Origin: Chiloscyllium plagiosum
Taxonomy: Eukaryota
Reading direction: 5' to 3'
Length of the DNA stretch: 64,000 bases
Assembly: GCF_004010195.1 (NCBI RefSeq)
Contig: NC_057719.1
Span: forward strand, 33,317,520 to 33,381,519
The notes under the pieces: model-generated
Seen by the model: the letters and a program-made list of their open reading frames with translations, nothing else
The model's database searches: none
Told to the model about the DNA's origin: nothing
Shown: piece by piece, positions 7,690 to 55,530 of the stretch
Position numbering within the stretch: the first letter of the stretch is position 1
Layout: every line of letters begins with the position of its first letter
Translations under genes and position numbers: made by a program

Positions 7690-8950
7690 TCCTTGCAAAT
7701 CTTTTCTGAACCCTTTCAAGTTTCACACCATCCTTCTGATAGGAAGGAGACTAAGATTGCAAGATTCCAAAAGTAGCCTAACCAATGTCCCGTACCAGAA
7801 CATGATCTTCCAACTCCTGTACTCAATGCTCTGATCAAAAAAGAAAAGCATACCAAACACCTTCTTCACTGTCCTCTATACCTGTAACTCCATTTTCAAG
7901 GAACTATGAATCTGCACTTCAAGGTCTTTTTGTTCAGCAACCCTCCCCAGGACCTTACCATTAAGAGTATAAGTTCTGCTCTGATTTGCTTTCCCAAAAT
8001 GCAGCACCTCGCATTTATCTAAATTAAATTCCATCTGCCACTCCTCAGACCATTGGCCCATCTGATCAAGATCCTGTAGGACTCTGAGGTAATCTCCTTC
8101 GTTGTCCACTACACCTCCAATTTTGGTGTCATCTGCAAACTTACTGACTATATCTCTTATGATTACATTCAATTCATTTATATAAATGACGAAACATAGT
8201 TTTGATCCTTGTGACACTCCACTGGTCACAGGCCTCCAGTCTGAAAAGCAACCCTGCTCCACCACCCTCTGTCTTCTACCTTTGAGCCAGTTATGTACCT
8301 AAATGGCTACTTCTCCCTGTATTCCATGAAGTCTAACCTTGCTAACTATCTCATGAGGAACCTTGTCAAACGCCTTACTGAGTCCATATAGATCATGTCC
8401 ACCTCTCTGCCCTCATCAATCCTCTTAGTTATTTCTGCAAAAATCTCAATCAAGTTCGTGAGACATGATTTCCCATGCACAAAGCCATGTTGACTATCCC
8501 TAATGAGTCCTTGCTTTTTCAAATACATGTAAATCCTATCCCTGAGAATTCCCTCCAATAACTTGTCCACCACCAATGTCAGGCTCACTGGTCTATAGTT
8601 CCTGGGCTTGTCCTTACCACCTTTCTTAAACAGTGGCACGACGTTAACCAACCTCCAGTCTTCTGGCCCCTCACCTGTGATTATTGATGATACAAATATC
8701 TCAGCAAGGGGCCCAGCAATCACTTCCCTAGCATCCCCCGAAGTTCTAGGGTACACCTGATCAGGTCCTGGGGATTTATCCACTATTATACTTTCAAGAC
8801 ATCCAGCATCCCCTCTTCTGTAATATGAACATATTTCAAGATGTCACCATCTATTTCTCCACATTCCAAATGTTCCATGTCCTTCTCCGCAGTAACCATT
8901 GATCTACTGTGGCTCCACACATAGGGTGCCTTGCTGATCCTTGAGGGGCC

Positions 8951-9069
8951 AAAGAGTGTGGTGCTGGAAAAGCACAGCTAGGCAGGCAGTATCCGAGGAG
9001 CAGCAGAGTCGATATTTTGAGCAGAAGGAATTTTGATGTCCAGCATCTGCAGTCCTCACTTTACCCTAC
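8951..9069 (+). mobile_element. Short fold-back PLE-derived insertion (family 1)
   Basis: 17-bp TSD ctgatc(c/t)ttgaggggcc at 8934-8950 and 9070-9086; family terminus cagcatctgcagtcctcacttt. Confidence 0.85.
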
Positions 9070-9429
9070 CTGATCTTTGAGGGGCCCTATTCTCTCCTTC
9101 GTTGCCCTTTTGTCCTTAATATATTTTTAAAAATCCTTTGGATTCTCCTTAACCCTATTTGCCAAAGCTATCGCATGTCCCCTTTTTGGCCTCCTGATTT
9201 CCCTCAAGTATACTCCTACTGTCTTTATACTCTTCTAATCATTCACTAGATCTCTCCTGTCTATACCTGACATATGCTTCCTTCTTTTTCTTAACCAAAA
9301 CCTCAATTTCTCTGGTCACCCGACATTCTCTACACCTACCAGCCTTTCCTTTCACTCAAATAGGAATATACTGTCCCTAGACTCTCATTATCTCATTTTT
9401 GGAGGCTTCTTATTTTCCAGCCGTCTCTT

Positions 9430-10754
9430 CATCATTAAGTGCTTTGAGAGACTCATGTTGAGGCATATTTAGACCTTGCCAACCCCCTTACTGGACATCC
9501 TGCAGTTTGCATGTCATCCAAATCGCTCAACAGGTGATGCCATTTCCACCACCCTCCATCTGGCCCTCATCCATCTGGAGAAGGACACCTACATCAGACT
9601 ACTGTGCATCAACTTCAGTTCTGCATTTAACACTATCATTCTTCAGCACCTGAGTGGAAAGCTGAGTCTGCTGGGCTTGAATGACCTCCCTTTGTAACTG
9701 GATCCTAGATTTCCTGACTGGGATACCTAAGTCAGCCCGAATTGGAAACAGCATCTCCAACACCATCACACTGAGCACAGGGGCTTCCCAGGGCTGTGTG
9801 TTCAGTACACTGCTGTTCACCCTGCTGACACACAACTGTGTAGTGATGCACAGGTCCAATCATATCATCACATTCGCTGATGATACAACTGTCGTGGGTC
9901 TCATCAGCACGAGCGACGTGTCAGCATACAAAGAGGAGGTGCAGCAGCTAACAGACTGGTGCAAAGCCAACAACCTTTCTCTGAACATGGACAAAATGAA
10001 AGAGATGGTTGTTGCCTTCAGGAAGGCACAGAGCGACCACTCTCCATAGAGATCGTGAAGAGCACCAAATTTCTTGGCCTACACCTGGCGGAGAATCTCA
10101 CCTGACCTCTCAGCACCAGATCCATAGCCAAGAAAGTCAAGCAGTGTCTCTACTTTCTGTGTAGGCTGAGGAAAGCCCACCTCCCAACCTTCATCATCAC
10201 CACGTTCTACAGAGGGTACATTGAGAATATCCTGAGCTGCTGCATCACTGCCTCGATCGGGAATTGCACTGTCTCGGATTGTAAGACCCTACAACGGATA
10301 GTGAGGACAGCTGAGAGGATCATCGGGGTCTCTCTTCCCTCCATTACAGACATTTAGTCCACATCCAAAAGGATAAGAGCATTGTGGAAGTCCCTCACTC
10401 AAACTCCTATCCTTCCTGCCATCTGGCAGAAGATACCGGAGCTTTCGGTCTCTCATGGCCAGACTGTGCAACAATTTCTTCCCGTAAGCCATCAGGCTCC
10501 TTTCCACTGTATGATCAGACTCTTTCCCATCTGAAATACTTTGCACAACTTTGAATTGCTGCTAGAAAGATGTGTATTATTTATCATTCTTCTGTTACAC
10601 TGTAACTTGTGTATTTTGCACTATTTGTGCACTTTATACCATGTAAGATTGTGTAGTTTATGCTGTCCATGTAGCACCCTCGGTACTGGAGGAATGCTAT
10701 CTTGTTTTTACTGTTATATATGGTAGAAATGACAAATAAAAGCTACTCTACTCT
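9430..10754 (+). mobile_element. 5'-truncated Rex1/Babar-type LINE (second family)
   Basis: [36 protein letters not shown] motifs; AATAAA then (CTACT)n tail; splits the CR1. Confidence 0.85.
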
Positions 10755-11488
10755 ACCTGCAAACATTTGCCTCCAATCAGCTTTTGAAAGTTCTTGCCGA
10801 ATACCATCAATATTAGCCTTCTTCCAATTTAGAACTTCAACTTTTAGATCTGGTCTATCCTTTTCCATCACTATTTTAAAACTAATGGCTGGCCCCAGAG
10901 TGCTCCCCCACTGACACCTCAGTCACCTGCCCTGCCTTATTTTCCAAGAGTCGGTCAAGTTTTGCACCTTCTCCAGTGGGTACACCCATATCCTGAATCA
11001 GAAAATATTCTTGTACACACTTGATAAATTCCTCTCCATCTGAACCTTTAACACTATGGCAGTACCAGTCTCTGTTTGGCAAGTTAAAATCCCCGACCAT
11101 ATCCATCCTATTATTCTTACAGTTAACTGAAATCACTTTAGAAATTTGCTTCACAATTTCCCGCTGACTATTAGGGGGTCTATAATAGGATCCCAATAAG
11201 GTGATGATTACTTTCTTATTTCTCAGTTCTACCCAAATATCCCGGAATATCCTCCATAAGTACAGCAGTAATAATATCCCTTATCAAACGTGCCACTCCC
11301 TCTCCTCTCTTGCTCCCCTTTCTATCCTGCCTACAGCATTTGTGTCCTGAAACATTAAGTTGCCAACAAATTCTGCCTTAGCAGGTTGTTTTTTCTTATC
11401 ATTACTGAAATTACCTTGTTTTAGCTTCTGCTTTTTTTTTGTCAGAAGTCACACAACACCAGGTTATAGTTCGATGGGTTTACTTTTA

Positions 11489-11525
11489 ATCAAAACTTTT
11501 GGAGCACAGCTCCTTCATCAGGTGA
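11489..11525 (-). ncRNA. Hammerhead motif, family 2 (G12 lost, likely CpG decay)
   Basis: UCAC-CUGAUGA-A-GGAGC(UGU)GCUCC-AAAA-G...; the partner arm at 13305-13341 ends AAAAGCUU-GUGA, giving helix I UCAC/GUGA. Confidence 0.55.
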
Positions 11526-12466
11526 AGTGAAGGGAAGCACACAGGCACAGAATTTATATGCAGAGAGATAATGGCAAGGTAATTCCAGGTAATTCAGTGT
11601 CGGAAGATAAACATAAATGGTGTGAGCGAAGTGTCGACGGGCTGAATAACAAGTCCTTGCAGGTAATCAAAAGAGTCAAACGGTATGAGTAAAGTGTCAA
11701 CGGCTGAATAGAAAGTGAAGGGATGACCAATTAATATTTCCAAAAGTGTCAAAAAAGGATAGTGCTGGAGACAAACCAAATGACTGGAGTAACATGATCA
11801 GTGTAAGAGTCACTTGACAAGGGTCTAATCGAAGTAACAAGTAATCCAAAAAACTGTACAAACTAATTTAGGTAGATGATAACAACTTACCAAGGTGATG
11901 GTATCAAAACTTAACAGTAAGGAAGATTGTACAAACACAGAACAGAATGATGGGGTTACATGTAGCACGACATAAACCCAAGATCATGGTTGAGGCCATT
12001 TTCATGGGTACCAAACTTGGTTATCAGTTTATGCTTGGCGATTCTGCATTGTTGTGTATCTTGAAGGCCACCTTGGAGGATGCTTACCTGAAGATTGGAG
12101 GCTGAATGCTCTTGACCACTGAAGTGTTCACTGACTGGGATGGAACACTCCTGCCCGGCGATTGTTGCAGTGTTCACTGTTGTTGTTAGTGTCTGCATGG
12201 TCTTGCTGATCTCCCAGGCCTCGGGGCCTCCTTTCCTACAGAATATAAGATAGGCAACAGTGGCCAAGTCATATGAGTATCTGCCATGTACTTGGTGGGT
12301 AGTGTTCCCAAGTGACATGATAGTATCCATGCCGATGATCTAGCATGTCTTGCAGAGGTTGCAGTGGCAGGGATGTGTGATGTTGTGGTCACTGTTCTCC
12401 TGAAGGCTGGATAGTTTGCTGCAAACCATGGTCTGTTTGATGTGAGGCAGCTGTTTGAAGGAGAGA

Positions 12467-12625
12467 AAACTCAGTCACATTAGGGAGATTTAAACAATCC
12501 TTGGATAAGCACATTGATGATGATGGGATAATGTTGGGGGGGAGCTTTGATTAGTTCACAGGTCAGCGCAACATTGAGGGCCGAAGGGCCTGTTTTGCAC
12601 TGTATTGTTCTATGTTCTATGTTCT
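12467..12625 (+). mobile_element. CR1 3'-end fragment inserted in the PLE
   Basis: ttgagggccgaagggcctgt...(TTCTATG)n tail, similar to the 3' end of the CR1 at 21317. Confidence 0.75.
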
Positions 12626-17530: not shown

Positions 17531-18899
17531 CACATTTAGCCTCATTTATGCTTTGAATATTGAACCTGTGAAACATATCTATTTCAGTCTCATCTTATTT
17601 GCTGACTGCTGAACCTTTACAGCATGTTTGTGGAGCGGTTATTCAATGCTCTTTGCTCTCACTTGTTGAGTGTTTCCTGGCTGGGACTTCCATCTTTCCA
17701 TTTGATGACTGCTTGTTATTTGTGTTAACAACAAAAATTCCTACTGTTCTCCAAACGTAAGGTGTTTTGAAGGATACCATTGGGTGGCTGATCATGGTTA
17801 GATAAAACAGGGGAGCAATGGAATGAGGACTGGCGGAAGCAAATCAGAAGAAAGACAAATTATGATCCAAGAGGAGGGACTGTAGATGGTTCTTAAGGAA
17901 AGGATAATGACGCTGAGGGAAGATGTTCAGTCATGTTGCAGGGTGGTTGCAGGACCAAGCATGAATGGTGAAGTGAAGTAGAGAGAATGAAATTATCTTA
18001 ATGGTGAGGGAGGAAAGGAGGATGTATATTTTGACAAGAATCTCAGTACAGCTTTGGGAGAAAAAGATTTACAGATGAGAAATGGATTTCTAAGGCAACA
18101 GGAGAAGGGTGAAAGGCAGAAATATCCTTGAAAGAGGAAATGGAATAAAGGGAGAGATTTGATGATGAAAGACACACTGCTGTCACTGGCATTTTGATCA
18201 GAGCAGATAGAACAAAGTATAGCCAAACCGGGAGCTTTCAGTGAGGAGGCACAGTCACTCACCGGGGAGAAAGTAAATTAAATTATCTGTTCTTTTCTTC
18301 TGCCCTTAATAGTGCTGAACCTAAATTTAGTTCTTATTTTTATTCATTTTATCTCTGAAGTTATGTTGTGCATTTATCCCAAAATCCTCTACTTGACCGG
18401 TTTTTAAACGATTCACAACAACTCTCTTTATTGTTAATTGGTTGTGTGTGTGTGTGTATGTGTGTGTGCGTATTGTGAACCATACACCAGGGTATATGGT
18501 TGACAATACACACGCACACACACATAGATTCACAACCACACATACAGACACAAACAACCACACAACCACACACACAAATCATGCATGGGAAGAAAGAGAG
18601 AGAAACAATGGTAAAGAAGAAAAAGAGAAAAGGTTATGACATTAATTAATTAATTGACATAAATTTAAGTCCAGTAAGTCCTTGCCTAATTACCATGCAC
18701 AGAGGATAGTGGTGTAATGGTAATATTACTGGACTAGCAATACAATCAAATTTCTGGAGACACAGGTTTGATTCCCAACATGGCAGTTGGTGAAAGTTGG
18801 ATTCAACTAAAAAAAATCTAGAATTTAAAATAAGGCTAATGGCAATTACTGTTTAAAAAGACACTCACCCAGTTCACTAATGGCCTTTAGCAATGGAAG

Positions 18900-19108
18900 G
18901 AGGAGAAAGTGAGGACTGCGGATGCTGGAGACCAGAGTTGAAAAGTGTGGTGCTGGAAAAACACAGCAGGCCAGGCAGCATCCGAGGAGCAGGAGAATCG
19001 ACATTTCAGGCATTAGCCCTGAACTCCTGAAGAAGGGCTTATGCCCGAAACGTCAATTCTCCTGCTCCTCGGATGTTGCTTGGCCTACTGTGTTTTTCCA
19101 GCACCACA
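18900..19108 (-). mobile_element. Short fold-back PLE-derived insertion (family 1)
   Basis: 15-bp perfect TSD ctttagcaatggaag (18885-18899, 19109-19123); about 80-bp inverted arms. Confidence 0.9.
19023..19058 (+). ncRNA. Minimal hammerhead motif
   Basis: CUGAAGA-A-GGGC(UUAU)GCCC-GAAA-CGUC; helix I degenerate. Confidence 0.7.
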
Positions 19109-19849
19109 CTTTAGCAATGGAAGTCTGCCGTTCTTATCTGATCTAGCCTATGTATTACTCTGGACTCACAACAAGGTGGTTGACTCCTAACTGCCTGCTG
19201 GGTAATTAAGGATGGATAATAAATGCTGATGTCGCCAATGGTGCCCACATCCCACAACAAATATTTTTAAAAAGTGAATTCTTGCAGTTGGCTGATCTGG
19301 TAGAACATTTTTTGTACAAACTCAGATATAGGTGGATTCCTCTCAAGGCCCAGGAATATATTTCTTGTAGGATGGGAAATTATTTCACTTTTCAGGTGAA
19401 ATAGAGCAATGAAATTTCAAGGGAGATTGAGACTTTTTGACGCAGGCCTAGCTGAGTTTGGAATTGTTTTTCTTGTTTTCTGACTGGGTATAGAAAGGAA
19501 AGTAAAAGAGAAGTCAAAATGGCCTTTGATGTATCTTATTAAAAAAAAACTGTGTTTTGTAGCAGTTAACTGTGGGGCCATTGGTATTATCTCAGACATA
19601 AAGAGTTTTGATAGCTCCCCCTTTCATTTAGAATTGGCTGGTGTTGACGTTTTGTCTGCCATTAATTTGTATTGGTTTGACTGGAATATGTATACAATAC
19701 CAACAGTATGGCATGCCAGGAGAACAATACAAGTTTTTGTCCCATTCTTACTACTGATCAGATGGAATTTAAAATAAAGGAGAAAGGTATTCTTATGACA
19801 GAAATAAGGAAAAAAAAAACACACACAAGTGAGAACCAAGATGAATGCA

Positions 19850-23255: not shown

Positions 23256-25027
23256 ACAAATAAGAGCACTAGAGAAATTCCACCAAGTCACCTGGATTCA
23301 ATGAGAGGACCATCAAACAAATGCTGGTGCCCGTCTTGAACTGCGCTCCATAAGCATTCAGGCAGAAATGCTAAATTAACGTAGGTGGACTGGACACTGT
23401 GTCCAGATGGCTGACAACCAAGATCCCCACCAGTTCGTGTTTTCTCAAATCTCAATTAACCAATATTCAGACAGAGGACAAAGAGAACATTTCAGAAACA
23501 TTCTGAAACTAACATTGAAACACAGCAGCATTCACATTGAGAGCTTACCAAGTGTTCAGAACAGCAGCAAGTTCTTCATCAAGCTGCATCACGCTCAGGA
23601 TCCCAGTGTCTTAATGATCAGACTGAACCATGGCAGACAAGGAAAGAAAAGGAGGCAAATCCATCTGTCTGAATCCTATTACCTCATGGGCCAACCTGCT
23701 CCACATTTGTATAGGTCATACGTTGTGAATCAGCCTATTCAAATCACATAAAGGCCATGGCAAAAACTTGCAATCCTGAATAAATGTCATACTCAAAGCA
23801 AGGACAGCCACTGATGACAAGATTAAGAAACCTATCTTTTTCCCAGGAGAATACAAAATAGTCCCATGGCATTACTTCAAAGAATACTGAGGTTCTTAAG
23901 TTTCCTGTATAATATTTATTATCAATCAACTTTATTTAAAAACAAAGATTGTTAAGACATTGCAGCTGTGGGACCTTGCTGTGTGAAATTAACTGCTGCA
24001 TCTCTTATTTACCAACAGTGATTACACTTCAAAAAATATTTGATGTGCTTTGGGATGCCCAAAGGTCATGAGAAACATTATATAAATGCAAGTCAAAGCC
24101 TTCATTGTTTTCACCAAATCAGTGCTCATTATAGGTCTTGTGGTATCATGGTGATGTCCTTATCTCTGGGCTAGAAGATCCATCTGCTCCAAAGGTTGAT
24201 TAAACATATCTATAAATATATGTCCTTTCTTTCTTAATATTTATACACTATACTTCATTGTTCCTTACATTAAATGTCATAAAGCTCTAATGAAATGTGC
24301 TACAACCAATGCATGGATTAAAATACAGCAATTCTTTTCATTTAAAACCCAGATGCTCCAAATAAACATTCAGTTCTCAAAATCAGAGGGTTTGTACCAA
24401 AATATGCACATTTACAGACCAGTATATTCTCCAGAGTAACAACTTTTAGATATGACTCTGGAATAGAAGACAGACTGTTAAGGCAGTCGCTCCTTAATTA
24501 GTTAAAATCTCCCTCTTTCAATAAAGGAGATCATGCTTCCAGGCAAGAGTACAATGACCTTTCACAATACCACTTCCAAATTCTAATAGCATTGTAGGTA
24601 TTTATGGCCCATCTATGCATTAATGGCTGTCTCTGTCAATTTGTGTGTGAAATATATAATCTATTAATAATTCATAACACATTTTTAAATCATTTATTAG
24701 TACAAGGAACGTAAACACACGCCAGAACAATTTACATAAGACTGCTAAACAGGACTTTGGATACAGATTTAATGTTATTTATAATGGTTGACAGATATAC
24801 CTGTTAAATTCTGAACCTGGGTTTTATTAGAATGATAGTGGTCTTATCCAGCAGTTGGATAGCAAGTAGATATACCCTATCAACAGTGCGAGGAGGCCTG
24901 ATGGAATTAAATGCCTTGCAAGCACTTATTTGGCAATTGTTAAGCTTTCCCTGTGAATTGGGCTGCCAGCAATGAAAGTCTGAAAAACTGCAGGTTAGGG
25001 CAGGGGGTTATCTTTTAGCTGCCATTC

Positions 25028-25223
25028 AAATGTGTTGCTGGAAAAGTGCAGCAGGTCAGGCAGCATCTAGGGAACAGGAGAATCGACGTTTCGGGCATTA
25101 GCCCTTCTTCAGGAAGAAGGCCCCTCTCCTGTTCCCTAGATGCTGCCTGACCTGCTGCGCTTTTCCAGCAACACATTTCCATCTCTGATCTCCAGCATCT
25201 GCAGACCTCACTTTCTCCTCAAA
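25028..25223 (+). mobile_element. Short fold-back PLE-derived insertion (family 1)
   Basis: 22-bp perfect TSD ggttatcttttagctgccattc (25006-25027, 25224-25245); inverted arms. Confidence 0.9.
25081..25115 (-). ncRNA. Minimal hammerhead motif
   Basis: Reverse complement UUC-CUGAAGA-A-GGGC(UAAU)GCCC-GAAA-CGUC-GAUU. Confidence 0.75.
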
Positions 25224-26139
25224 GGTTATCTTTTAGCTGCCATTCTCTTGCCTGAAACCAGGTCTCTGAATTGGCCACAGAGTGTCTGTTGGCAATTGAC
25301 CCCTTTTCTACTCTGTCCGTTCCCTCAAATCTCTCACCACCTACCATCCACCTAGGAGGTTAAGAATAAACCTGATGTGTTTAGCTGGACAGATTTCTGA
25401 GGCAACTGGAGGCCTGTGCTGCCTTCCTTTAGTCTCTCAGTCTTGAGGAAATTGTGGTGGGCTCAAGAATAATGGACTTTAATTAGACTCATTAATGAGC
25501 CTAATCACCATCTTGTTGCTGATGGCTTGGAATCCCCTGCCAGCTCCTTCCCCTCTCTGACCTAATCTAGACAGGCTTTATCATTGACACGATGCAAGGC
25601 CTAGACTACAATTATTGGGCCTGTTTGCCATGGTTTCCATTGTACAGGGCTGCATAAAACCCAGACCATGCAGTGGACTGGGGAATCTTTACTGAGCATT
25701 TAGAATTCTTGACCAACCTTCTGGCATGCGGATGAAAAATCTATTTTGGAAAGATACATTATATTTTTATTTCAACATCTGCCCAAGGGGAGAGCTGTAA
25801 TGCTGTAAAACAGTACTTCAGTGATGTGATTTCTGCTCTACCAACCCACAGCAGGCTCCATAACAACGTCTGAAATCCTCCAGTACATGCAAAATGAGAA
25901 TTTACAAAGAACATCAAAACATGGAAAATCTTGGAAATTTTTAATCAAGTCTTTCTACATGATATCTATGATGAAAGATGAATAATTCTTGATCATTGCT
26001 AATTGTTTTAAACTAGCCAAGACCTCATGGACTATGCCCGGAGAAAGCAAAATATGGGATACATCAAGGAATAAAGGCAATCACAGATATTTGGATGGAT
26101 TAGTCGGTAGGGATGCCAGTAATAGGCTGTGAAATAAAA

Positions 26140-26758: not shown

Positions 26759-27490
26759 TCTCTGAGGCGCACCTAGAGGTTGCATGTGAAAAAGAACATT
26801 TTATTCACATTGGTCTGCAGATAGAGGCCAGCAACTGTAAGCTCACAGACATGGCTGGTGGATCCAAAGCAGATCAACAGTAGGGGTGTGGCCACATGAC
26901 CTTGGATAAAATATGGATTGAGGCAACCTTATGGGGGCAAGAAGGTTGAGTGACACACCATTTTCAATCTCAAACCTCTCACTAGACACCTACCGTTATC
27001 TCCAGCACAACACTCATCAGACCAAATCATTCTCACCTTCATCCCCTCCCCCACTCACCCATTGTACACTATGCTACTTTCTCCCCACCCCCACCCTCCT
27101 CAAGCTTATCTCTCCACGCTTCAGGCTCACTGCCTTTATTCCTGATGAAGGGCTTTTGCCCGAAACATCGATTTCGAAGCTCCTTGGATGCTGCCTGAAC
27201 TGCTGTGCTCTTCCAGCACCAATAATCCCAAATGCTTCTCTTTGTCAAGGCATCGACTTACATTTCCCATCCAAATCGTCAACACAGCTATCCACTTCCT
27301 TATTACTTTCCCCACAGTTCCTTTCACAAATGTACAAGCATGCTTTCAAACTGTTCTGTTTCTCACACTGATAACACTCTATTCTCTCTCCTTGTAGGAG
27401 AGGTCAGAAGCAGAACTCAAGGGAGAGGCAGAGAATCAAAAGTGCTCCTCCTAGTATAGCCACACTGAGCACTTTAAAATCAGATGCATC
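26759..27490 (+). pseudogene. Second Harbinger-type Myb/SANT-like gene relic
   Basis: FSEAHLEV / KNILFTLVCR*RPATVSSQTWL...QINSRGVAT*PW, then after a ccttgtag acceptor (27397) QKQNSRERQRIKSAPPSIATLS; frameshifted. Confidence 0.45.
27030..27225 (+). mobile_element. PLE terminal-repeat fragment with hammerhead motif at 27138-27173
   Basis: attc-ctgatga-a-gggc(tttt)gccc-gaaa-catc followed by the family-1 tail. Confidence 0.75.
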
Positions 27491-28892
27491 AAAAATCACG
27501 AAGTTTTGGACTGACTATCCACTGGAGAGATAGAAATGAGGACCTCCTAGATATCCAATAGATATTTCACAGTCACACAGCACAGAAAACTCATAAGTCT
27601 TAATATCTTATCACCCAAAACTGAAACATGATCCTTGGTACAATTGGAACTTTGAATCTTTTCTCCTTGTAAACTACAGTTTATATTCATCTCCTGCACA
27701 TTTTTCAAACATGACACAGGAGCTAGTGCAGGAAGCAATGAAGGAGTCCTTAGTAGAAGGTAGGCTACACTGAGGAATCACATTGACACCTTCCACTGGC
27801 TCAGACACAGATACCTTGTTGGGACCTTCAAAACACATCGTTGGATTATACCATAATCAGTTACAAACCATAAGTGAGCAGAAGTACATGTTAGAGACAG
27901 CAGTGGATGGTCCCTGTTGGAGGTTGCACAGTCTTCCAATATCTGCTCAGCTGGATGCAGATGCTGAGCTTCAGGGATCATTGACCAAAAACAGGAGCAG
28001 AAGCAGAAAATACGGGCATGTTAAATCAACATTTCCAGATGTATTGCTCAGTACTGGAGATAGATTGGAGCAGTATGTTTCCACATAAGTAGCAGGATAT
28101 CTAAGGCATTTGTATTGTTTTCAGTTCCTTTGAGAAGATTCAGATGTGAATGATAGCACAGTGTATATTAGTTTCCACCATTGGCCTGCATTCTCCATCT
28201 GCTGATTCAAACAGGATGAAGAAAAAACCCTATGAAGAGCAGCAAGGTCCTCAGCAACCTCTCGCCAGCAGAAAAGCATAACTGAACCTTAAGAGGGAAG
28301 ACGGAGAAGAGAGACATAGTAAAGTGGTCTTTGCTCAAGGATGTCCTATTCCTTCCTTATTACCATTCCCTCCTCACCCCTCTTCTGATGATCAGTTCTG
28401 CCCTTGTGCTGTTGCATATTCAGCATGGGTCTTACAGGCTCCAAATTGCAGAGAGTCAAGCACAAGCAATTCAACTGTCAGTGTCTACCAACACCTCCAA
28501 AGATAGGGATAGCATGACACAAGAGTTATTGAAAAAGGATGAAATGTAACTTGTATCTAGGAAACAAAATCACTTGGGCACACAAATGTCTGTAATCTCT
28601 TCACTTTATTGCAATTGTTACACACCATAAATTTGATTCCAACCCTATTGTCTAGGTATCACCATGATCACCTTTTGTCTGCCAAATGGATGCAGCTTCA
28701 AGGTAAACAGCAAAATTAAAGTAGTACTTGAGTTGAGTAGTGTCAGTGAATTGGAAGGGTTATTTAAGAACATTTTGTGCTGGAGGAGTGAGGGGGCAAT
28801 GTGGTGGATCCTCACAGTCAAACAGTTTCAGATTAATTGAATTGTGCCTATATTGTGAACCTGAGTATCTATGGCATCTAAATGTGCACGTG

Positions 28893-30265
28893 ATAGACAA
28901 GTAGGAGGCTGGGAGAGCAAGCCAGGCAGCATCAAGAGGTGGAGAAGTTGACGTTTTGGGTGTAACCCTTCTTCAGGACTGGGAGTGGGTGTAAGGGGCG
29001 CTGCAGATATATGGGGTGGGGTGTGGAGGGCAGGCTGGTGAGGAAAGGACAGGTGAACAATGGTAGAGGGTATGACCTGGTTGGTCGATGGGAGGAAAGA
29101 ATCCATTTGGAGCGAGGGGCGTAATGTGCCAGCAGGTTTTTCACCTTTTCCAGTTGGAGAGGAAGGTACCTGGGGATCATGGGGGTTTGGTGGGGAGAAT
29201 GGCACGAACCAAGAATTGGTGATGGGACTGGTCCTAGTGGAAGGAAGAAATGGGTGTGGAGGGGAAGATGTCCTTGGTGGTGAGGTCTAGTTCAAGTTGG
29301 TGGAAGTGTTTAAGGATGATGCGTTGGATGCAGAGACCGTTGGGGTGGTGGGTGAGGACAAGGGAAACCCTGTCTTTATTGCATTTAGAAGGGGGAGGGT
29401 TTAGAGCAGTGGAGGGGGGAATGGAGGAGGTGCAGTGGAGGGCCGTTTGGATGGCAGAGGGGGGAGATGCACGTTGTTCGAAATAGGTGGACATTTGGGA
29501 TGCTTGGGAGTGAAATGTTTCCTCATCTGAGCAGATGCTGCAGAGGCAGAGGAATTAGGAAAACGGTATGGAGTTCTTGCAGGCAACTGGGTGGGGAGGA
29601 GATGTAGTCTAGGTTGTTATGGGAGTCACAAAGGTTACTTGCTCACCTCTCCCCTCACCTCCATCCAGGACCCCGAACAGTCCTTTCAGGTGAGACAGAG
29701 GTTCACCTGCGTCTCTTCCCATCTAGTTTACTGTGTCTGGTGCTCCTAATGTGGTCTTTTCTACATGCCCCTTCCCATGCCTTTTCCGACATGACTATCC
29801 TTGGCCTCCTCCATTGCCACAGCGAATCAGACTGCAAATAGAAGGAACAACATCTCACGTTCTGCCTGGGCAGCCTACACCGGGGCACTCAACCCTGAGT
29901 TCTCCACTTTAAAATAACCTCCCTTCCCATTTCCTGACTTCCTTCCCAGCCCCTCTCCATCTATTCCATTCCTCTGATTGACCCTTCCTTCCAGCTACCA
30001 ACCGGATTCATTCCTCCCGTCGACCAACCAGGTCATACCCTCTAATTATGTTCACCTACCCCTACCTCACCATTCCGCAACTCCCCTCCCCCACCCACCC
30101 CCATTTATCTGCAGCTCCCCTTGCTCCCCTTACACCCATCCCCAGTCCTGAAGAACGGTTACACCCAAAATGTTGACTTCTGCACCTCCTGATGCTGCCT
30201 GGCCTGTTGTGTTCTTCCAGCCTCCTGTTGTCTACTTTGGATTCCAGCATCTGCAGTTTTTTCGT
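28893..30265. mobile_element. Penelope-like element with internal inversion and inverted termini
   Basis: Minus strand DRVSLVLTHHP...IILKHFHQL (post-RT region); plus strand QSFQVRQRFTCVSSHLVYCVWCS*CGL (GIY-YIG start); arms about 28893-29110 and 29990-30232; decayed hammerheads at 28946-28980(-) and 30144-30178(+). Confidence 0.8.
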
Positions 30266-30756
30266 CTCTAACCAAGTATGCAGCTGGAGCCACGTGAGGC
30301 TCATCCTTCAGCAATCCTTCCTGCTTTTTCTTCTAAGGTGCAGCACAGTCCTCACCTACCTCTTCCAGTAAATGCAGACCTCTCAGCTGGGCTATGTTGT
30401 GCAAAGCATAGCAGACCAATACCATACTCAGTGGTGTGCAGTGATGGCAGATCTAGGAACACCCAAGATTCAGGAGTTGTAGTTTCAGTATCTGAATAGA
30501 TAACTCAATTATCTCTTTTGTGCTCACATGGCTTCGGTTGTGCCATTTAATGGTAGGGCACCTGAGAGGGTGTTGCATGTCTCCAACTAGTCTGCTTAAA
30601 ACTTGGAAGATATGTGTGAGAGCCATCGAGCATAATATGACTGGTATTATTGCTATTTCCCAGAAACCTTACAGGGACATGCATGATAATCTTTTGATGG
30701 ATTCCAGCTGAACATTAACAAAGAGGAAATTCTTGTGTTTGAGAAATCCACTAAGA

Positions 30757-31420
30757 TTATGAGAATATAGGAAGAGGAGTAGGTCATTCTGCGCTTCAAG
30801 CCACCATTTTAGATCATGGTTGATCATCTTCTCAATGCTATTTTCACACACTCTTCCCATTGGCCTTAATATCATTTATCTCAAGAAACCTATCAATCTT
30901 TATTTTGAACCGGCTCAATGATTGACCCTCCACAGCCTTATGAGGTACTGAAATTCCAAAGGTTCACCATCCACCAAGTGAAGAGGTTTCTTCTCATCCC
31001 CACCTTAAATTACTTAACTCTTATCCTGAGATCATGTCCTATCTATATCAGAGTTGAAAAGTGTGGTGCTGGAAAAGTGCAGCAGGCCAGGCAGCATCCG
31101 AGGAGCCTGGCCTGCTGCGCTTTTCCAGCACCACACTTTTCAACTCTGGTCTCCAGCATCTGCAGTCCTCACTTTCTCCTATCTATATCAGCCCTGTCTT
31201 GCCCTATAAGAATTTTGTTTGCTTCAATGAGATCACCTTTCAATCTTCAAGACCCAAAAAAAGCACACGGCTTTCTTAACCTCCCTTTACACGGGAATCT
31301 TGTCACGAGGATTAATCGAGTGAACCTCTACTGAACTCTCACTATGGCAAGTATATTTCTCCTTTACAAAAGGGAATAAGACTCTCTAATATCTCATATG
31401 AGGTCTTACCAAGGCTTCAT
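30757..31420 (-). mobile_element. Old CR1 3' fragment
   Basis: Resembles the 3' ends at 22870 and 38220; interrupted at 31052. Confidence 0.55.
31052..31176 (+). mobile_element. Short fold-back PLE-derived insertion lacking the hammerhead
   Basis: 15-bp TSD tcctatctatatcag (31037-31051, 31177-31191); about 43-bp inverted arms. Confidence 0.85.
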
Positions 31421-37286: not shown

Positions 37287-37834
37287 ACTTGTCAAGCCCT
37301 GGGCCCTGGAGGGGGTCTCCTGAGTTAATACAGGTATCTATACAAGGCTCCCGTTCCTTTGTTTGGGAGCATTGCGCTGAGCATAGCTGGTCTGAATTTT
37401 GAGGGTTTTTTTATACTTTTCTTTCTTTTTTTTGGTGTTGCTTTGCATAGTGTTAGGGTTTGTTTTGTATTACAGGGTAGGTTAGTAGTTGGTAGACAGT
37501 AGTTGTATTGTAATTTGTGGGGTTTTTTAGTTTTTATTATTCTGATACTTGTTATTGATTGTATTTTTCAATAATTTTATATGTTTGTAAAGTTCAAAAA
37601 AATTTGCAAATAAATATATTTACAAAAAAAAGTTATCCAATATCCGAACAATCAGTTACCAAACAATCAATTATCCAAACAAAATACTCACCGCCCATCT
37701 CATTCGGATAATCAAGGTTGTTCTGCACAAGCTTTTGGAGCACTAGCTACCTGACGATGGATCAGCACTCCAAAAGCTTGTACTTTCAAGTAAACCTGTT
37801 GGACTATAACCTGGTGTTGTGTGATTCTTGTCAA

Positions 37835-38045
37835 AACGTATGGCGCTAGAAAAGCACAGCAGGTCGGCAGCATCTGAGGAACATATGGGAGCCAATGTTT
37901 CGTGCATAAGTGTTTCATCAGGAATGAAGATGAAGAGCTTATGCTCGAAACGTTGACTTTCCTGCCCCTCGGATGCTGGCTGTGCTTTTCCAGCACCACA
38001 CATTTTTACTATGATCACCAGCATCTGCAGTCTTCACTGTCTCCT
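37835..38045 (+). mobile_element. Short fold-back PLE-derived element (family 1)
   Basis: Inverted arms around catcaggaat/gatgaagagcttatgctcgaaacgtt; helix II variant GAGC/GCUC. Confidence 0.75.
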
Positions 38046-38384
38046 TGTATGATTTTTAGAAATGTAAAATGAGGTCAGGGAAGACAATATGGAAGCTTGA
38101 CTAATCAAGGACAGATAAGATGTATCAAAGCTCAAGGAGCTCTTAAGGATCCTTTATATAAAGCTGAGTTTTACTGCATTGTTTAAATAAAGAACAAAAC
38201 ATATAAATAGATAAATTATGAACAGAAGTAAGCCATTCGCTTCCTTGGGTATTCTTTACTATTCAATAAGATCTGGTTGTTCTACCTGCATTTTGAATTC
38301 CACATTCCCATCAACTCTTCATTACAATTGATGCCCTTGTTTAACAAGAATCAATCCACCTTTGCCTTAAAAACACAATGACTT

Positions 38385-38688
38385 ATCCTCCACCAGTGTT
38401 TGAGATGAGGCGCTCTTCTCCAACCGTCGTGTTGCTATGGTCTGGCAATGGAGGAGTCCAAGGACCTGCATGTCCTTGGTGGAGTGGGAGGGGGAGTTCA
38501 ACTCCCCCAAGTCCCTCCTCCCTACCTTTTATCTTAGCCTGCTGGACACACTTGCCTCATTCCTGAAAAAGGGCCTATGCCCGAAACGTCGATTCTCCTG
38601 TTCCTTGGATGCTGCCTGACCTGCTGCGCTTTTCCAGCAACACATTTTCAGCTCTGATCTCCAGCATCTGCAGTCCTCACTTTCTCCT
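38385..38688. mobile_element. PLE fragment: inverted endonuclease C-terminal piece plus terminal repeat
   Basis: 38400-38500 is the reverse complement of the PLE C-terminus seen near 29790-29860; hammerhead with G8A at 38559-38594; family terminus. Confidence 0.75.
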
Positions 38689-41418: not shown

Positions 41419-41471
41419 CTTTTGTCAGGAAATCTGATTGCTACGGTCAGTCAAAGGAATAAGTGACTGAG

Positions 41472-41661
41472 CTGAAAATGTGTTGCTGGAAAAGCGCAGC
41501 AGGTCAGGCAGCATCCAAGGAACAGGAGAATCGACGTTTCGGGCATAAGTGCCCGAAACGTCGATTCTCCTGTTCCTTGGATGCTGCCTGACCTGCTGCG
41601 CTTTTCCAGCAACACATTTTCAGCTCTGATCTCCAGCATCTGCAGTCCTCACTTTCTCCTC
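41472..41661 (+). mobile_element. Very young fold-back PLE-derived insertion (family 1)
   Basis: 15-bp TSD gaataagtgactgag (41457-41471, 41662-41676); perfect 77-bp palindrome 41469-41545 / 41550-41626. Confidence 0.93.
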
Positions 41662-41782
41662 GAATAAGTGACTGAGTCATTTACTGAAGAAACTATGCTC
41701 AATATGAAACATATGGTCACAGGTGCCTCTATTCTAGCTCCTTACATTGTATTTTGTAGATTGTATTCGGTATCCATTGTAT

Positions 41783-44125
41783 TAGAATGATACAGTACTG
41801 AAGAGGCCCATTGGCCTATCGAGTCTGCATTGATAACAGCTGCTCAATCTACATGAGTCCCACTTTTCAGCACTTGGCCCATAGTATTGAACATTGTGAC
41901 ATTTCAATGCTCATTGAAGTACTTTGTAAAGGTTGTGAGGTTTCCCACTTCTACTACTCTACCAGGCAGTGCATTCTGGGTGAAAAAACATTTTCCTCAA
42001 ATCTCTTTTAAACCTCTAAGCCTTTCACATTAAAATTATGCCCCCTGTTATGGGCTGTTCAACTACGAGGATCAACAGCTCTTTATCTACCATGCCCATG
42101 CCTGTCATAATCTTGTACATCTCAGTCAGGTCCCCTCTCAGCCTTCCCTGCTTAAAAGGAAACAACCAAGCTTATTCAGTCTCTCTTCATAGCTAAACTG
42201 TTCCATCCTAAAGCAACATTTATCAGAGTTAAATTCCATCTTGCACTAATCTGTCCAACTGACCAATCCATCGGGATCCTCTTGTGATCTAAGACCTTCT
42301 TTCTTACTGTCAACTACCCAGCCTTGTGTCATCCGCAAACGTACATATCATTGCCCCCACCCCTACATTTTCTTTTATATTATTTACATTCATATCACAA
42401 ACAATAAAGGGCCCAGTATTGATCCCTGTGTTATGCCACATACATTGGCCTCCAGTCACACAAACAGCCTTCTCCCATCACCCTCTGACTCCTAGCACTA
42501 AGTCAGTTTTGGATCCAACTTGCGAAGTTATCCTGGCTCCAAAATGCACTTACCTTCTTTATCAGTCTCGCATGTGGGATCTTGTCAAAGACTTTTCTGA
42601 AATCCATATAAACTATATCAGCTGCACTACTCTCATCTACACACCTGATCACCTCCTTGAAAGATTCAAGCAAATTTCTTAAGCACAACCTCCCTCTGAA
42701 AAGTCATGCGGATTTTCCCTGATCAAACTTTTCTTCCTCAAATGGAGATGAATTCTCTCCTTCAGAATTTTCTGCAGTACATTCCCTCTCACTGGTGTAA
42801 GGCTCACTGGTCTGTCATTCCCTGGTTTATCTCTACTACCCTTCAAGAAACTTGGAATCGTATTTGCATCCTGCAGTCTTCTGGCACCTCCCCTGTGTCC
42901 AGTGAGGTATTAAAGATTTGTGTCACAGCCCCTGTAATTTCCTCCCTCATCTCCCAAGCCTAGGTTGCTCGTATGGACCTAGTGTTTGTCCTTTCTTAAG
43001 CTCACCAAAATCTCCAGTACCTCCTCTTTCCCGATGTCAAACTGCCCAAGAATCTGACTGTTCCTTTTCCTGATCTTTGTACCTACATCCTCTTTCTCCT
43101 GAGTGAAGTATTCATTTTACAATCTATCAATGCCTCCAGTTCCACCCACAAATTGTACTCTTGGTACCCAATGGGTCCTTCACTGGTCAACTTCTTCCCC
43201 TTAATATACAAACAGAATATCTAGAGATTCTTCCTAATCTTACCCACCAATGTTTTTTCAAATGCCCCATTTTTGCACAAGATTTCCCCTTGCACTTTCT
43301 GATGATTTGCTCCCTTTGTATCGGTTGAAAACCTCTCTTTTCCTTCTAATTGAATCATGAATATTCCTCGACATCAAGCATTGCTCCTACATTTCACTTT
43401 AAAGGAACATGTTGGGTCTGTACTTTCACCAGTTTCATTTTGAATGCCCTCCACTGTTTCTGCTGCAGATTTTCCCAGAAATAGCTGTTCCCAATTTAGT
43501 TTGGCCTGATAATAAACAAACAAACTGTAGATGCTGAAAATCAGAAACAAAAGCAGAAATTACTGGGAAAGCACAGCAGGTCTGGCAGCATCTGGGGAGG
43601 AAAATCAGAGTTAACATTTTGGGTCCAGTGAGCCCTCAGATTTCTCTCTACAGATGCTGCCCGACCCATTGAGTTTTTCCAACAATTTCTGTTTTTGTTT
43701 CTACTTTGGCCAGATCCTGCCTTATGTTATTAAAATCTTGATAGTGATAGTTGTGGTCATTATCATGAAAACACTCTCCCATTGCCATCTGGACTATCAA
43801 TCTGACTTTGTTCCCCAATATCAGGTCTTGCAATGCACCGTCCCTTGTGAAACTTTCTAAATGTTGATATGTAAAACTCTCCTGTCTCCTCGAAACCCTT
43901 TGCATCGACTAACCCAATCAGTGTTGGGGTGGTTAAGATCCACAAATATAATTACTTTATTGTTATACACAGCTCAGTGAATTTTCTACATATCTGCTCC
44001 TCTTTTGCCCACTGACTTAAGGCCTATAATACATTTCCAGCAGTGTGACCGCCACCTTTATATTGCAAAGCACCACACACAAAGCTTCATTTGAAGATGG
44101 TTTTCCAAGATGGTATCCCTCCTTT
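41783..44125 (-). mobile_element. Old, internally deleted CR1 LINE
   Basis: YMDFRKVFDKIPH, EVPEDCR, TRDGALQDLILGN motifs. Confidence 0.8.
43507..43703 (-). mobile_element. Fold-back PLE-derived element, third family
   Basis: Arms agaaacaaaagcagaaatt...gcagcatctg / cagatgctgc...aatttctgtttttgtttct; short repeat tttggcc on both flanks; decayed hammerhead at the centre. Confidence 0.65.
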
Positions 44126-48685: not shown

Positions 48686-48687
48686 AC

Positions 48688-52819: not shown

Positions 52820-53521
52820 TGTGGGATATAGGTAAAGTAGTGTTACTTCTGCAATCATAATTACTTATGCAAGGTAAATGCACTCACACCAGTGTATAAT
52901 TGTTTCAACCAAGAGCTGAGTCAACAAGAATGAAAATATATAATTGTTTTTGTATTAGCTAAAATGTGCATGCAAGAATGAAATGTGCCTGCAAACAATG
53001 GTAGATGTTAGAGACAAATAGATAAGGTGCTGTGAGGGGAGGGGGTTAAGCTAGATACGCCTGTACAAACAGTAGTTATAAGCATCTGTTTCCCACTTCT
53101 GCAAAAACAAGAACAAATCACAATCAAGGGGTCATGAGGTCATACAAATGAGGGAAACAGATGGTAGTGAAGGAGGATATACCTAACAATGGACCACAGC
53201 AGGATGTGGTCAAATGGCCTTGTGAGGCCAGATTTAAGCATTTTGTCACAGACAAGGCTGGATAAGGCAAGAGATAAACAAGAGTAATGGGCGCCGGTCT
53301 TAAAGAGGTGGGAGATGTAAACAGGGGAGGAGCAATGGGATGAAAGAATAGGAACCAAATTACATAAATGTTGTGTACTAGTTGAATTCAGTGTGTGTGT
53401 ATCCCTGCCTTGTGCACAGTGGATACCACGCCCCTCTTGCAAGGGTAAAATAAATGACACTACTGATTCAGATCTTGTCTCAGAATGAAATTATTGAAGT
53501 GAGTGAGCTTTGTTTCTCACA
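52820..53521 (+). repeat. ERV 3' LTR
   Basis: Preceded by the PPT, followed by TSD gccat. Confidence 0.93.
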
Positions 53522-54000
53522 GCCATGTTTTCCACCAAACCTGCCTTCCAAAGTCATTCAAACAAGTCTGATAAATGCTGTAAATGTTCCTTCCATGAGT
53601 GACTAAAAAAATCACCAGGTCTTCAATGTAAACAACACAATTGGGTAACCTGGCAATGACCATATTAGTCAGTCTCTGAAATGTGGATGGACTGCTTTTC
53701 ATACCAAATGGCATGATGTTGAACTGACAGAGGTACTTGCCAATAGCCTATGACCAAATCCAACTTAGAAATGTAAATTGTTTGTCCCACTTTTTCGACA
53801 CAGTCCTCCAACCTGTGGAATTGGATGTACATCAGTCTTTGTAAGAGCATTGACTTCGCAATATTCCACATATAGCCATTGGGTACCATGACTATCGGTG
53901 AGCTCCAGTCACTGTAACTCACTTTGATTATGCAATCTTGGAGCATGCACTTTATCTCCTTCTGGATCTGTGCCATCTTTAGAGGGTTGTGCCTGTAAGG
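53522..54000 (-). pseudogene. Gypsy RT N-terminal and catalytic region
   Basis: SDWSSPIVMV, SKLDLVIGYWQV, MPFGMKSSPSTFQR, YIED (mutated YxDD). Confidence 0.88.
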
Positions 54001-54269
54001 ATGTTGTTTAATCGAACAGCATCTCCTATATCTACATCGTGCATAATTAGGTTAATACTTCCCACTTTATTTCCGCATATCTCCCCATGTGATAGTAATA
54101 ACTCATTCAGGTCATTTTGATTTTCTTGTGGAAGGTATCTCAGTAATTTATCCCAATTTTTGACAACTTCCTCATTGTCTAACTTGAATTGCGGAATGTC
54201 CAATTTAGAATGCTCCAACCTTGGTTCTTCCTTCAGTGCTGTAATCATTAACACTTTCTCCTCTTGCTT

Positions 54270-55530
54270 TCCTTCCTTATCAAAACATCTTTTGAGCTTA
54301 TTCACATGACACACTCAGAGACTTCCTCCTGTCTGGAGTCCTTATCAAGTAGTTCACCTCCCTCAATTTCCTCTCAATTTGATAAGGTCCACTAAACCTT
54401 GCTTTTAAAAGTTCACCTGTTACAGGAAGTAACACCAAAACCTTCTCTCCAATTGCAAAACTGTGGATATGTGATTTCTTATCTGCTTTCTGTTTCATTG
54501 TATGCTGTGATACTTTTAAATGCTGTCTAGCCAACTCTCCAGCTCTATTTAATCATTCTCTAAAATTTGACACATATTCCAAATGGGTGGTCTCTGAATT
54601 CTGACTTATTAATTTCTCCTTAATCAATTTTAACGGTCCTCTTACTTCATGCCCAAAAATTAATTCAAATGGACTGAATTTGGTCGATTCATTCAGTGCA
54701 TCTCTGATCGCAAAAAGTACAAAGGGAGCTCCCTTATCCCAATCATTTGGATAATGCTGACCATAAGCTCTCAACATGGTCTTTAGTGTTTAATGCCATC
54801 TCTCTAGCACTCCCTGCGATTCTGGATGGGATGCAGTGGTTTTGAATTGCTTTATTCCCTAGTTATCCATAACCTCCTTCAATAGCTTGGATGTGAAGTT
54901 TAATCCTTGATCTGACTGGATTTCTATTGGTAGTCCATATCTAGTAAAAAAAATTAAATAATTCTTCTACTACCCTTTTAACTGCGATGTTGCGTAATGG
55001 GATTGCCTCTGGAAATCTAGTCGACACATCCATTATTGTTAATAAATACTTATTCTCACTTTTTGTTTGAGGTAGGGGACTTCCGCAATCAGGCGAAAGG
55101 GAGGACTGCAAATGCTGGAGATCAGAGTCTAGATTAGAGTGGTGCTGGAAAAGCACAATAGGTCAAGCAGTATCCGAGGAGCAGGAAAATCGATGTTTCG
55201 GGCATTCCTGATGAAGGGCTTTTGCCCGAAATGTCGATTTTCATACTCCTCGGATGCTGCCTGACCTGCTGTGCTTTTCCAGCACCACTCCAATCTAGAC
55301 TTACGCAATCAATCAAGACTCTTGTGAAAGGTTCCTCAAATGCTGAAATAGGTATTAAAGGTACAGGTTTTAATTCTGCCTGTGGCTTTCCAATTAGCTG
55401 ACATGTATAACACGTTTGGCAAGATTCAACTACATCCTTGTGTAGTCCAGGCCAGTAAAAATGTCTTTGTATTTTAGCCTGTGTTTTCCTCACCCCTAAA
55501 TGACCTCCAAGTGGTAGCTCATTTGTCACT
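54270..55530 (-). pseudogene. Gypsy integrase
   Basis: GGHLG...CQTCYTCQ zinc finger, LTIMDVSTRFPEAIPL, FSPFELIFG, ARFSGPY. Confidence 0.9.
55092..55297 (-). mobile_element. Short fold-back PLE-derived insertion in the integrase
   Basis: 14-bp TSD gactt(c/a)cgcaatca (55078-55091, 55298-55311); hammerhead on + at 55204-55239. Confidence 0.88.

Follow-up and report, generated by a model that had tools for sequence, protein, structure and literature searches.

Short fold-back insertions in Chiloscyllium plagiosum as probable 5'-truncated ends of a Penelope-like element

Endonuclease-positive (EN+) Penelope-like elements (PLEs) leave insertion units with an inverted, 5'-truncated pseudo-LTR (pLTR), a tail of 30-40 nt at one end and a TSD of variable length (PMC8557442; Adineta Pen2a, PMC3846280). 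A CX2-5CxxC linker marks Neptune and Nematis (PMC8557442), and pairs of minimal hammerheads on opposite strands, 100-700 bp apart, are on record for Schistosoma (PMC4209133; PMC8557442). In vitro, the enzyme of PAc, a Poseidon element of Anolis, nicks and extends both strands, with two internal starts that bound the tail and with uncleaved RNA as the template (PMC11167929); the joining of the two cDNAs was not demonstrated in that study, which left the later steps open. In metazoan non-LTR retrozymes the units follow each other head to tail, each with its own complete hammerhead, and yield circular RNA (PMC7761336; bioRxiv 10.64898/2026.07.22.740005).

The insertions analysed here show the insertion architecture already published for PLEs at its smallest size: each consists of two 5'-truncated pLTR ends placed head to head, one of them with the known 30-40 nt tail. 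Head-to-head pLTRs, a single tail, variable TSDs, junction microhomology and other repeats as targets are shared with canonical EN+ PLE units; in contrast to these, the present insertions are often reduced to the pLTR (119-215 nt) and are very numerous, and their TSDs measure 13-22 nt as opposed to 8-10 nt in the rotifer examples (PMC3846280). With Neptune-clade PLEs (PMC4209133; PMC8557442) they have in common the RT thumb, the CX2-5CxxC linker, the order with a C-terminal GIY-YIG in relatives, and a minimal hammerhead in the pLTR. They resemble retrozymes in being non-coding and pLTR-related, with a type I hammerhead and dependence on PLE enzymes, but their arms are inverted, a full core is often missing and each junction is unique. 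A search confined to the published literature found no description of this Neptune-type family in cartilaginous fish.

Insertions and relatives in the window

The window, i.e., the whole stretch of 64,000 nt that was analysed, contains the six short insertions (8951, 18900, 25028, 31052, 41472 and 55092) reported in a first-pass annotation; they are real and end in one common terminus, which has 10 matches in the window (<=3 mismatches), while 100 shuffles gave 0.00 on average. The list was incomplete, since at least four further short and four longer relatives occur in the window, in a size series of 119 bp, ~290 bp, ~770 bp and 1.4 kb. Element positions are numbered from the A of the hammerhead core CTGA as +1 (window position 38566 in copy K).

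8934..9086, plus: insertion A; 17-nt TSD (8934/9070, 1 mismatch), inverted arm ~+86 to +8, tail-only direct arm ~+84 to +123; no hairpin
18885..19123, minus: insertion B; 15-nt TSD (18885/19109), tail arm +5..+123 (18900-19020, minus), arms 72/79 identical
19024-19112, plus: tail-less arm of insertion B, ~-5..+79/83, containing a single complete hammerhead core (19027)
25006..25245, plus: insertion C; 22-nt TSD (25006/25224), inverted tail-less arm +82..~-5, tail arm ~+28..+123, arms 53/55 identical
25084-25112, minus: complete hammerhead core in the tail-less inverted arm of insertion C
31037..31191, plus: insertion D; 15-nt TSD (31037/31177), inverted arm +88..+37, tail arm +49..+123, arms 40/41 identical; without any hammerhead sequence
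41457..41676, plus: insertion E; 15-nt TSD (41457/41662), inverted arm +86..+9, tail arm +13..+123, arms 74/74 identical
55078..55311, minus: insertion F; 14-nt TSD (55078/55298, 1 mismatch), tail arm +13..+122 (minus), tail-less arm -7..+87 (plus), arms 66/75 identical
55208-55236, plus: hammerhead core in the tail-less arm of insertion F
37817..38057, plus: fold-back G, an additional and older one; TSD of 13 nt (2 mismatches), inverted arm reaching -8, tail arm starting at ~-1
43497..43715, minus: fold-back H, an additional one from a diverged family; TSD of 14 nt (2 mismatches), one arm tailed
1713..2066, plus: adjacent fold-backs I (1713-1889, both ends tailed) and J (~1897-2066, no tail)
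38402..38688, plus: copy K; inverted EN-coding fragment and direct pLTR up to the fixed terminus
38415-38519, minus: PLE endonuclease C-terminal region in copy K (tblastn, P0005 310-345, E 8.5e-5)
28890..30277, plus: copy L of a related family; two-armed 1.4-kb insertion
29132-29587, minus: RT-thumb/linker remnant in the inverted tail-less arm of copy L
29645-29880: EN remnant in the direct arm of copy L, followed by pLTR, hammerhead-like core and tail
62842..63625, minus: copy N of the L family; two-armed, ~770 bp, one arm tailed, 9-nt direct repeat
27100..27232, plus: copy M; lone direct pLTR without tail, ending near the inner site
27142-27170: intact minimal hammerhead core in copy M

As annotated, all six insertions have TSDs of variable length (14-22 nt), and their bodies (119-209 nt) are free of poly(A); flanking repeats of the TSD type arose by chance in 3 of 1500 random stretches. 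Inspection of the flanks of I, J, K, L and M revealed no convincing TSD. The fold-back description holds for five of the six, which form long hairpins (-90 to -156 kcal/mol), and fails for 8951 (-28.7), which has two non-overlapping arms and forms no long hairpin. The inverted arm had been called variable; its internal junction does vary, but its outer end shifts very little (+79 to +91) and lies 32-44 nt inside the shared terminus, the fixed end being at +122/123. The reported arm asymmetry was borne out and equals the published PLE tail. An inverted 5'-truncated copy with a one-sided tail of 30-40 nt is found in six of six listed insertions and also in G, H, L and N; the one-tail rule is broken by I, with a tail at each end, and by J, with none. 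Contrary to the first proposal, the insertions are not uniformly young: arm divergence spans 0-27%, with arm-to-arm identities of 100, 97.6, 96.4, 91.1 and 88.0% in the five hairpins B-F and of 78 and 73% in two additional copies. Insertion E is a perfect hairpin with its junction within hammerhead stem II, and is 100% identical to copy K over 111 nt; C, E and K constitute one subfamily.

Coding remnants and hammerheads

One of the two readings offered at first, "extreme 5'-truncated PLE insertions", is supported by the arms, which equal the termini that ORF-bearing PLE copies have in the window and whose asymmetry is that of the published tail, and by junctions that all differ; the fixed end is attached to EN-coding and RT-thumb remnants in copies K and L. 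Very probably, the six are dead-on-arrival, 5'-truncated PLE insertions reduced to the pLTR end. The whole explanation, in which the source is an autonomous, endonuclease-positive Neptune-type PLE and the hairpin a by-product of each insertion, is also likely. In a full HMMER search the L remnant had 914 protein matches at E<=0.001; RVT_1 is followed by GIY-YIG in 4/5 of the matches scanned, and the CX2-5CxxC linker is present in 43/43 matches with a YIG.T motif (out of 150 matches), with a decayed trace of it at the end of P0001. As a caveat, this linker does not separate Neptune from Nematis, and the Neptune assignment is putative. A Pfam scan of three PLE remnants returned no relevant family, 0/101 candidates passed in a word-seeded protein search with the L remnant as query, and pattern scans yielded 0 loci in metagenome contigs and 0 in viral contigs. 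Within the 64,000 nt, the C/E/K subfamily is represented by no intact autonomous copy; joints in contigs that "go back" from 38688 hint at partial tandems.

Hammerhead core matches number five in the window (0.02 expected), and six cores with stem II are predicted minimal type I hammerheads in the pLTR. The Rfam scan gave no match to a hammerhead model; its 12 matches were all below the gathering score and of miRNA type or due to chance. As for a Pol III head derived from tRNA, 5S or 7SL, all that this general scan matched over the insertions were miRNA hairpins below threshold. Ten tail-bearing arms have a predicted internal stem, with two-sided change in only 1/16 pairs, and three pLTR folds (z -0.05, -0.71 and 0.45) provide no support for conserved structure. 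Hammerhead cleavage, predicted after +25, was considered as the cause of truncation and rejected: none of 18 arm ends lies at +26, the nearest being at +28.

Junctions, priming and alternative explanations

All nine mapped junctions in the window differ, and in the five hairpins B-F, across three subfamilies, each arm is nearest to its own partner arm; since the same shape was rebuilt in three subfamilies with nine different junctions, the hairpin was made anew at each insertion. The suggested comparison of breakpoints points the same way beyond the window, with no high-copy shared junction among the joints listed from the contigs of two genomes; the head-to-head joints in that incomplete listing come in 1-2 contigs each, a count limited by the breaking of contigs at palindromic junctions. 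Arm ends cluster in the 5' half of the hammerhead (13/18 within -11..+13), although clustered junctions are also expected from a few related masters, and the tail-less arm extends further 5' than the tail arm in 7/8 TSD-bounded one-tail insertions (A-G; the exception is H). Genome-wide, loose ends of contigs pile up at 38687/8 (+122/123; 2,905 contigs in X1) and at 38644 (+79; 664, due in part to a subfamily-specific indel that interrupts the alignment), where ~10 further element letters precede random flanks; organism B has the same two piles.

By analogy with a Poseidon-clade enzyme, from which the mechanism is taken over, it is reasonably probable that two nicked target strands prime cDNA at two internal PLE start sites. 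The GIY-YIG domain would nick the two target strands 14-22 nt apart, and each 3'-OH would prime cDNA on the element RNA, one at an outer start (+122/123) and the other further in, at +79 to +91, so that the tail corresponds to the 32-44 nt separating the two starts. Neither cDNA would run to completion, most of them ending within the 5' half of the hammerhead, which is uncleaved; the cDNA ends would be joined via microhomology of 0-3 nt or with a few added bases, and the TSD would result from gap filling. From one TSD to the other, the product would consist of the antisense arm, the junction and the tailed sense arm. In LINE-1 twin priming, two target ends likewise prime on the element RNA and leave an inverted 5' part inside the TSD; the arms do not overlap there, and no fixed position serves as the second priming site. 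A and K are similar to this pattern, but in the present family the second site is fixed and the arms mostly overlap. The predicted cleavage register is that of PAc, 26 nt after the core ATG; PAc, however, belongs to another clade, and its AC-rich start lies at +111-118 as opposed to +79-91 here.

A narrower version, possible but doubtful, would read the hairpins as traces, left in vivo, of leader-trailer twin priming on a single short RNA. An RT-EN dimer would use one pLTR RNA to prime both strands of the target. This RNA, either the mRNA's 5' pLTR or a transcript of a solo pLTR, would have its 5' end a little upstream of the hammerhead; the inner-site polymerase would lead to the template end, and the outer-site polymerase would trail by strand displacement and stop short. 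Twin priming of this kind would account for the 13/18 end cluster, the 7/8 arm order and the non-overlapping arms of A. If this version is true, a short pLTR transcript would by itself be a productive template, and tens of thousands of MITE-like dsRNA hairpins would have arisen without a hairpin master.

With the same PLE origin, the hairpin could instead have formed by self-priming, or snap-back, on the hammerhead palindrome, possibly from an antisense template, a route proposed for the head-to-head pLTRs of rotifer Penelope (PMC3846280). The junctions of B, E and F at the self-complementary stem II, the 4-nt loop and identical arms of E, the presence of both strands among the RNA reads (one poly(A) single-cell run) and the geometry of H, which fits folding of a tail-bearing strand, are all consistent with it. 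Yet the arm order of A-G implies that the tail-less arm, being longer at the 5' side, was not copied from the tail arm, and its missing tail implies that the tail arm is not its copy; moreover, the arms of A do not overlap. Snap-back is for these reasons improbable. The tens of thousands of short TSD-bounded copies are themselves data for distinguishing two-strand priming from self-priming and for placing the template's 5' end.

The other reading offered at first, a short hairpin RNA of retrozyme- or SINE-like kind that amplifies independently and is moved in trans by PLE RT/EN, could draw on the very high abundance of the element (99,845 and 104,488 contigs matched in two organisms), on the clustered 5' ends of the arms, on one head-to-head joint at a depth of 150 over 2 contigs versus ~27 for single-copy flanks, and on the existence of non-autonomous PLE derivatives and PLE-derived retrozymes. 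This amplifying ribozyme RNA is nevertheless not supported by the insertions: two same-strand hammerheads occur in 0/6, three of six lack a complete core, and no arm starts at the cleavage site. The lack of same-strand tandems means that these are not retrozymes, and the hammerhead is predicted to be buried inside the long hairpin of a read-through transcript. The different junctions, the recurrence of the shape in three subfamilies and the listed joints of 1-2 contigs each also disagree with an independent element. Of the matching RNA reads, 96% continue into unlike flanks with no piled starts or ends (in the same poly(A) library, which is blind to small circles). We regard such an element as very improbable. 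A MITE or other non-autonomous DNA transposon with TIRs, suggested by short, non-coding bodies with long inverted repeats, had been dismissed from the outset, and correctly so: the variable TSDs (13-22 nt, not one length) and the linkage of the same ends to RT/GIY-YIG remnants refute it, the inverted repeat is sub-terminal by 32-44 nt at one end and absent in A, and its likelihood is negligible. In annotation, neither MITE nor miRNA hairpin is the proper class for the insertions, which should be entered as PLE fragments; perfect hairpins, where transcribed, might also supply the host with dsRNA.

Host repeats and empty sites

The interruption of other repeats, presumably CR1, SINE and Gypsy sequences, holds for A, B and F and in part for 31052, and was not confirmed for 41472 and 25028. 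Insertions 8951 and 18900 break repeats that have paralogues spanning the empty site in the window (62582-62719 for A, 59751-59983 for B), and 55092 sits between Integrase_H2C2 and rve matches, a remnant of an integrase of the LTR-retrotransposon type. Both flanks of 31052 match one LINE-type repeat, 41472 begins ~40 nt beyond the end of the adjoining LINE homology, and a search for a host repeat around 25028 found none. A single contig of organism B has its alignment starting at 38688, preceded by 52 letters that do not align, which is suggestive of the absence of copy K from that site. For fold-back G, the surrounding sequence is the end of a second family of repeats.

Short insertions and their surroundings

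The six short insertions reported in the first-pass annotation (A-F) are real and mostly as described there: their 29-nt terminus has 10 matches in the window at up to 3 mismatches vs. 0 in 100 shuffles, and each body (119-209 nt) is enclosed by a TSD, with one mismatch in two of the six; a direct flanking repeat of at least 13 nt occurred in 3 of 1500 random stretches. Four further fold-backs (G-J) and four related copies (K-N) of a Penelope-like element (PLE) lie in the same window.

Fold-backs and related PLE copies. Junctions: tail-less arm / tail-bearing arm, in pseudo-LTR (pLTR) numbering, where the A in CTGA, the hammerhead core, counts as +1 (38566) and the fixed end is +122/123; identities are arm to arm.
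A, 8951: TSD 17 nt; junction +8 / +84
B, 18900: TSD 15 nt; junction -5 / +5; identity 72/79
C, 25028: TSD 22 nt; junction -5 / +28; identity 53/55
D, 31052: TSD 15 nt; junction +37 / +49; identity 40/41
E, 41472: TSD 15 nt; junction +9 / +13; identity 74/74
F, 55092: TSD 14 nt; junction -7 / +13; identity 66/75
G, 37817-38057: fold-back; junction -8 / -1; identity 64/82
H, 43497-43715: fold-back
I, 1713-1889: fold-back
J, ~1897-2066: fold-back; identity 55/75
K, 38402-38688: pLTR preceded by an inverted fragment with similarity to the C-terminal region of the endonuclease (E 8.5e-5)
L, 28890-30277: insertion with two arms, 1.4 kb long, from a related family; carries RT-thumb/linker and GIY-YIG endonuclease (EN) remnants
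M, 27100-27232: related copy
N, 62842-63625: related copy

Paralogous repeats within the window align through the empty sites of A and B, so that both are true insertions. The proposed insertion into other repeats holds for these two and for F, which is flanked by matches to Integrase_H2C2 and, weakly, to rve. For C, no host repeat was identified; E lies ~40 nt beyond the end of the adjoining LINE homology. CR1, SINE and Gypsy as host labels, and a shark as source, are inherited assumptions rather than computed results.

Parent element and class

The arms derive from a PLE. K and E share 111 nt of pLTR at 100% identity, and the pLTR at the end of L is homologous (71% over 121 nt). A protein search with the thumb remnant of L retrieved 914 relatives at E ≤ 0.001; RVT_1 is followed by GIY-YIG in four of five scanned relatives, and the CX2-5CxxC linker, a mark of Neptune and Nematis (excerpt of PMC8557442), occurs in all 43 relatives with a YIG.T motif among 150 hits. 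By domain order and linker motif, the predicted parent is a PLE of Neptune/Nematis type. The inverted arm of L (28890-29600) runs from the linker region directly into the 3' untranslated part, without the EN segment of the direct arm.

The arms contain five pattern matches to a minimal type I hammerhead core (0.02 expected), as described for PLE pLTRs (excerpt of PMC4209133), with cleavage predicted after +25; among A-F, a complete core occurs only in B, C and F, one each. Pairs of hammerheads on opposite strands, separated by 100-700 bp, were already on record in 2014 (excerpt of PMC4209133). Retrozymes require tandem same-strand hammerheads (excerpts of bioRxiv 10.64898/2026.07.22.740005 and PMC7761336); pattern and core scans found two on one strand in 0 of the 6 insertions, and the retrozyme-like reading is not supported. 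A MITE identity was rejected on the MITE criteria. The insertions share with published PLEs an inverted 5'-truncated copy, a one-end tail (30-40 nt in published cases) and variable TSDs (excerpts of PMC8557442, PMC3846280 and PMC8969392), and are explained by this known class. No description of this family in sharks, or of pLTR-only hairpins as a population, was found in the literature searched, which did not extend to Repbase, Dfam or subscription papers; what the insertions still offer is a large natural sample bearing on one step of PLE integration.

Arms and junctions in the window and in sequencing runs

Each insertion has two outward-pointing arms, one terminating at +122/123 and the other at +79 to +91 (a range that takes in 1-4 nt shared with the TSD); the asymmetry of the arms is therefore a tail of 32-44 nt. 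The first-pass annotation had set shared against unique inversion breakpoints; the nine junctions mapped in the window, including those of I and J, are all different. The fold-back shape ascribed to all six applies to B-F, which form long hairpins, but not to A, whose arms do not overlap and which lacks a long hairpin. In B-F, the two arms of each insertion are mutually closest among all arms compared; three arm subfamilies were found (C/E/K, B/D and F/M). Arm identities fall from complete in E to the lower values of G and J, which indicates an insertion process active over a long period.

Four sequencing runs were matched to 38250-38850 at 80% likeness; the matching contigs, 99,845 from organism A and 104,488 from organism B (not a copy number), imply that the family is very large in each organism. 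Loose contig ends pile up after +122/123 (2,905 contigs in DNA run X1; 3,162 in X9) and after +79 (664 and 733), there continuing for ~10 element letters before random flanks; the +79 pile is the second terminus, partly confounded by a subfamily indel. Five head-to-head joints among the joints listed (15 of 144) are represented by 1-2 contigs each, with a top depth of 150 vs. ~27 for single-copy flanks, so that no dominant master junction is apparent among the joints listed, where palindromic joints are under-counted and some uncounted. Tail-to-tail joints (+76..+91 with +122/123; 5-11 contigs in X1) resemble the neighbours I and J, which lie tail to tail at 1713-2066, separated by 7 nt; similar joints recur in contigs of both organisms, which suggests insertion into pre-existing pLTR ends. 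A poly(A) single-cell RNA run, a library uninformative on small or circular RNA, matched in 3,837 of 12,955,460 records, on both strands; 96% continue into dissimilar sequence, and neither starts nor ends of the RNA pile up. The reads fit passive co-transcription.

The fixed end (38675-38690) is a pyrimidine tract, beyond which the loose-end consensus of the DNA runs starts with AG or CAG (low agreement), resembling a 3' splice site; the family ends of L and N (30255-30277; 62851-62870) likewise finish in AG.

Origin of the hairpins and neighbouring repeats

The insertions combine two fixed outer ends, unique junctions and variable long TSDs. In PAc, both strands are nicked and extended by a predicted dimer, with internal starts at two sites bounding the tail and uncleaved RNA as template (excerpt of PMC11167929). 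By analogy, each nicked target strand would prime one cDNA, one per start site; both cDNAs would halt early and then be joined, and fill-in would produce the TSD. The main rival source of the hairpins is snap-back or antisense self-priming (excerpt of PMC3846280); however, if one arm were simply a copy of its partner, neither the non-overlapping arms of A nor the further 5' extension of the tail-less arm in 7/8 TSD-bounded one-tail insertions (exception H; two-sided sign test ~0.07, computed by hand) could arise. Arm ends fall within -11..+13 in 13/18 cases and at the cleavage site in 0/18 (binomial 4e-5 for 17 ends; 0.002 for 7/9, one end per insertion), in a count that omits H and the long copies K-N and uses a post hoc interval and approximate, hand-entered positions; the clustering may reflect the 5' end of the RNA, a stall at stem II or annealing to the stem II palindrome. 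All tail-bearing arms also carry a conserved complementary pair (~+41..47 with +98..104) that could close a loop in which the AC-rich inner end lies; an examination of these arms for covariation gave it no support.

Another repeat family, whose end is hammerhead-like (11441-16305, 31740-31779, 37749-37836), may be a further PLE family; it shows an inverted and tandem layout (11441-11906 vs. 12918-13382 and 15051-15514) and a 2-kb tandem duplicate at 98.9%, and fold-back G is located in its end. An inverted duplication at 44146-44830 (266 nt, 98%, spacer 153 nt, possible 10-nt flanking direct repeat) yielded no similarity to the PLE end. ORF remnants at 32014-36715, which match RVT_1 and, weakly, L1 Transposase_22, represent a probable L1/Tx1-type LINE, and direct repeats ~4.8 kb apart (48099-48685 vs. 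52934-53521; 93-97%) are probably a pair of LTRs belonging to a young LTR element.
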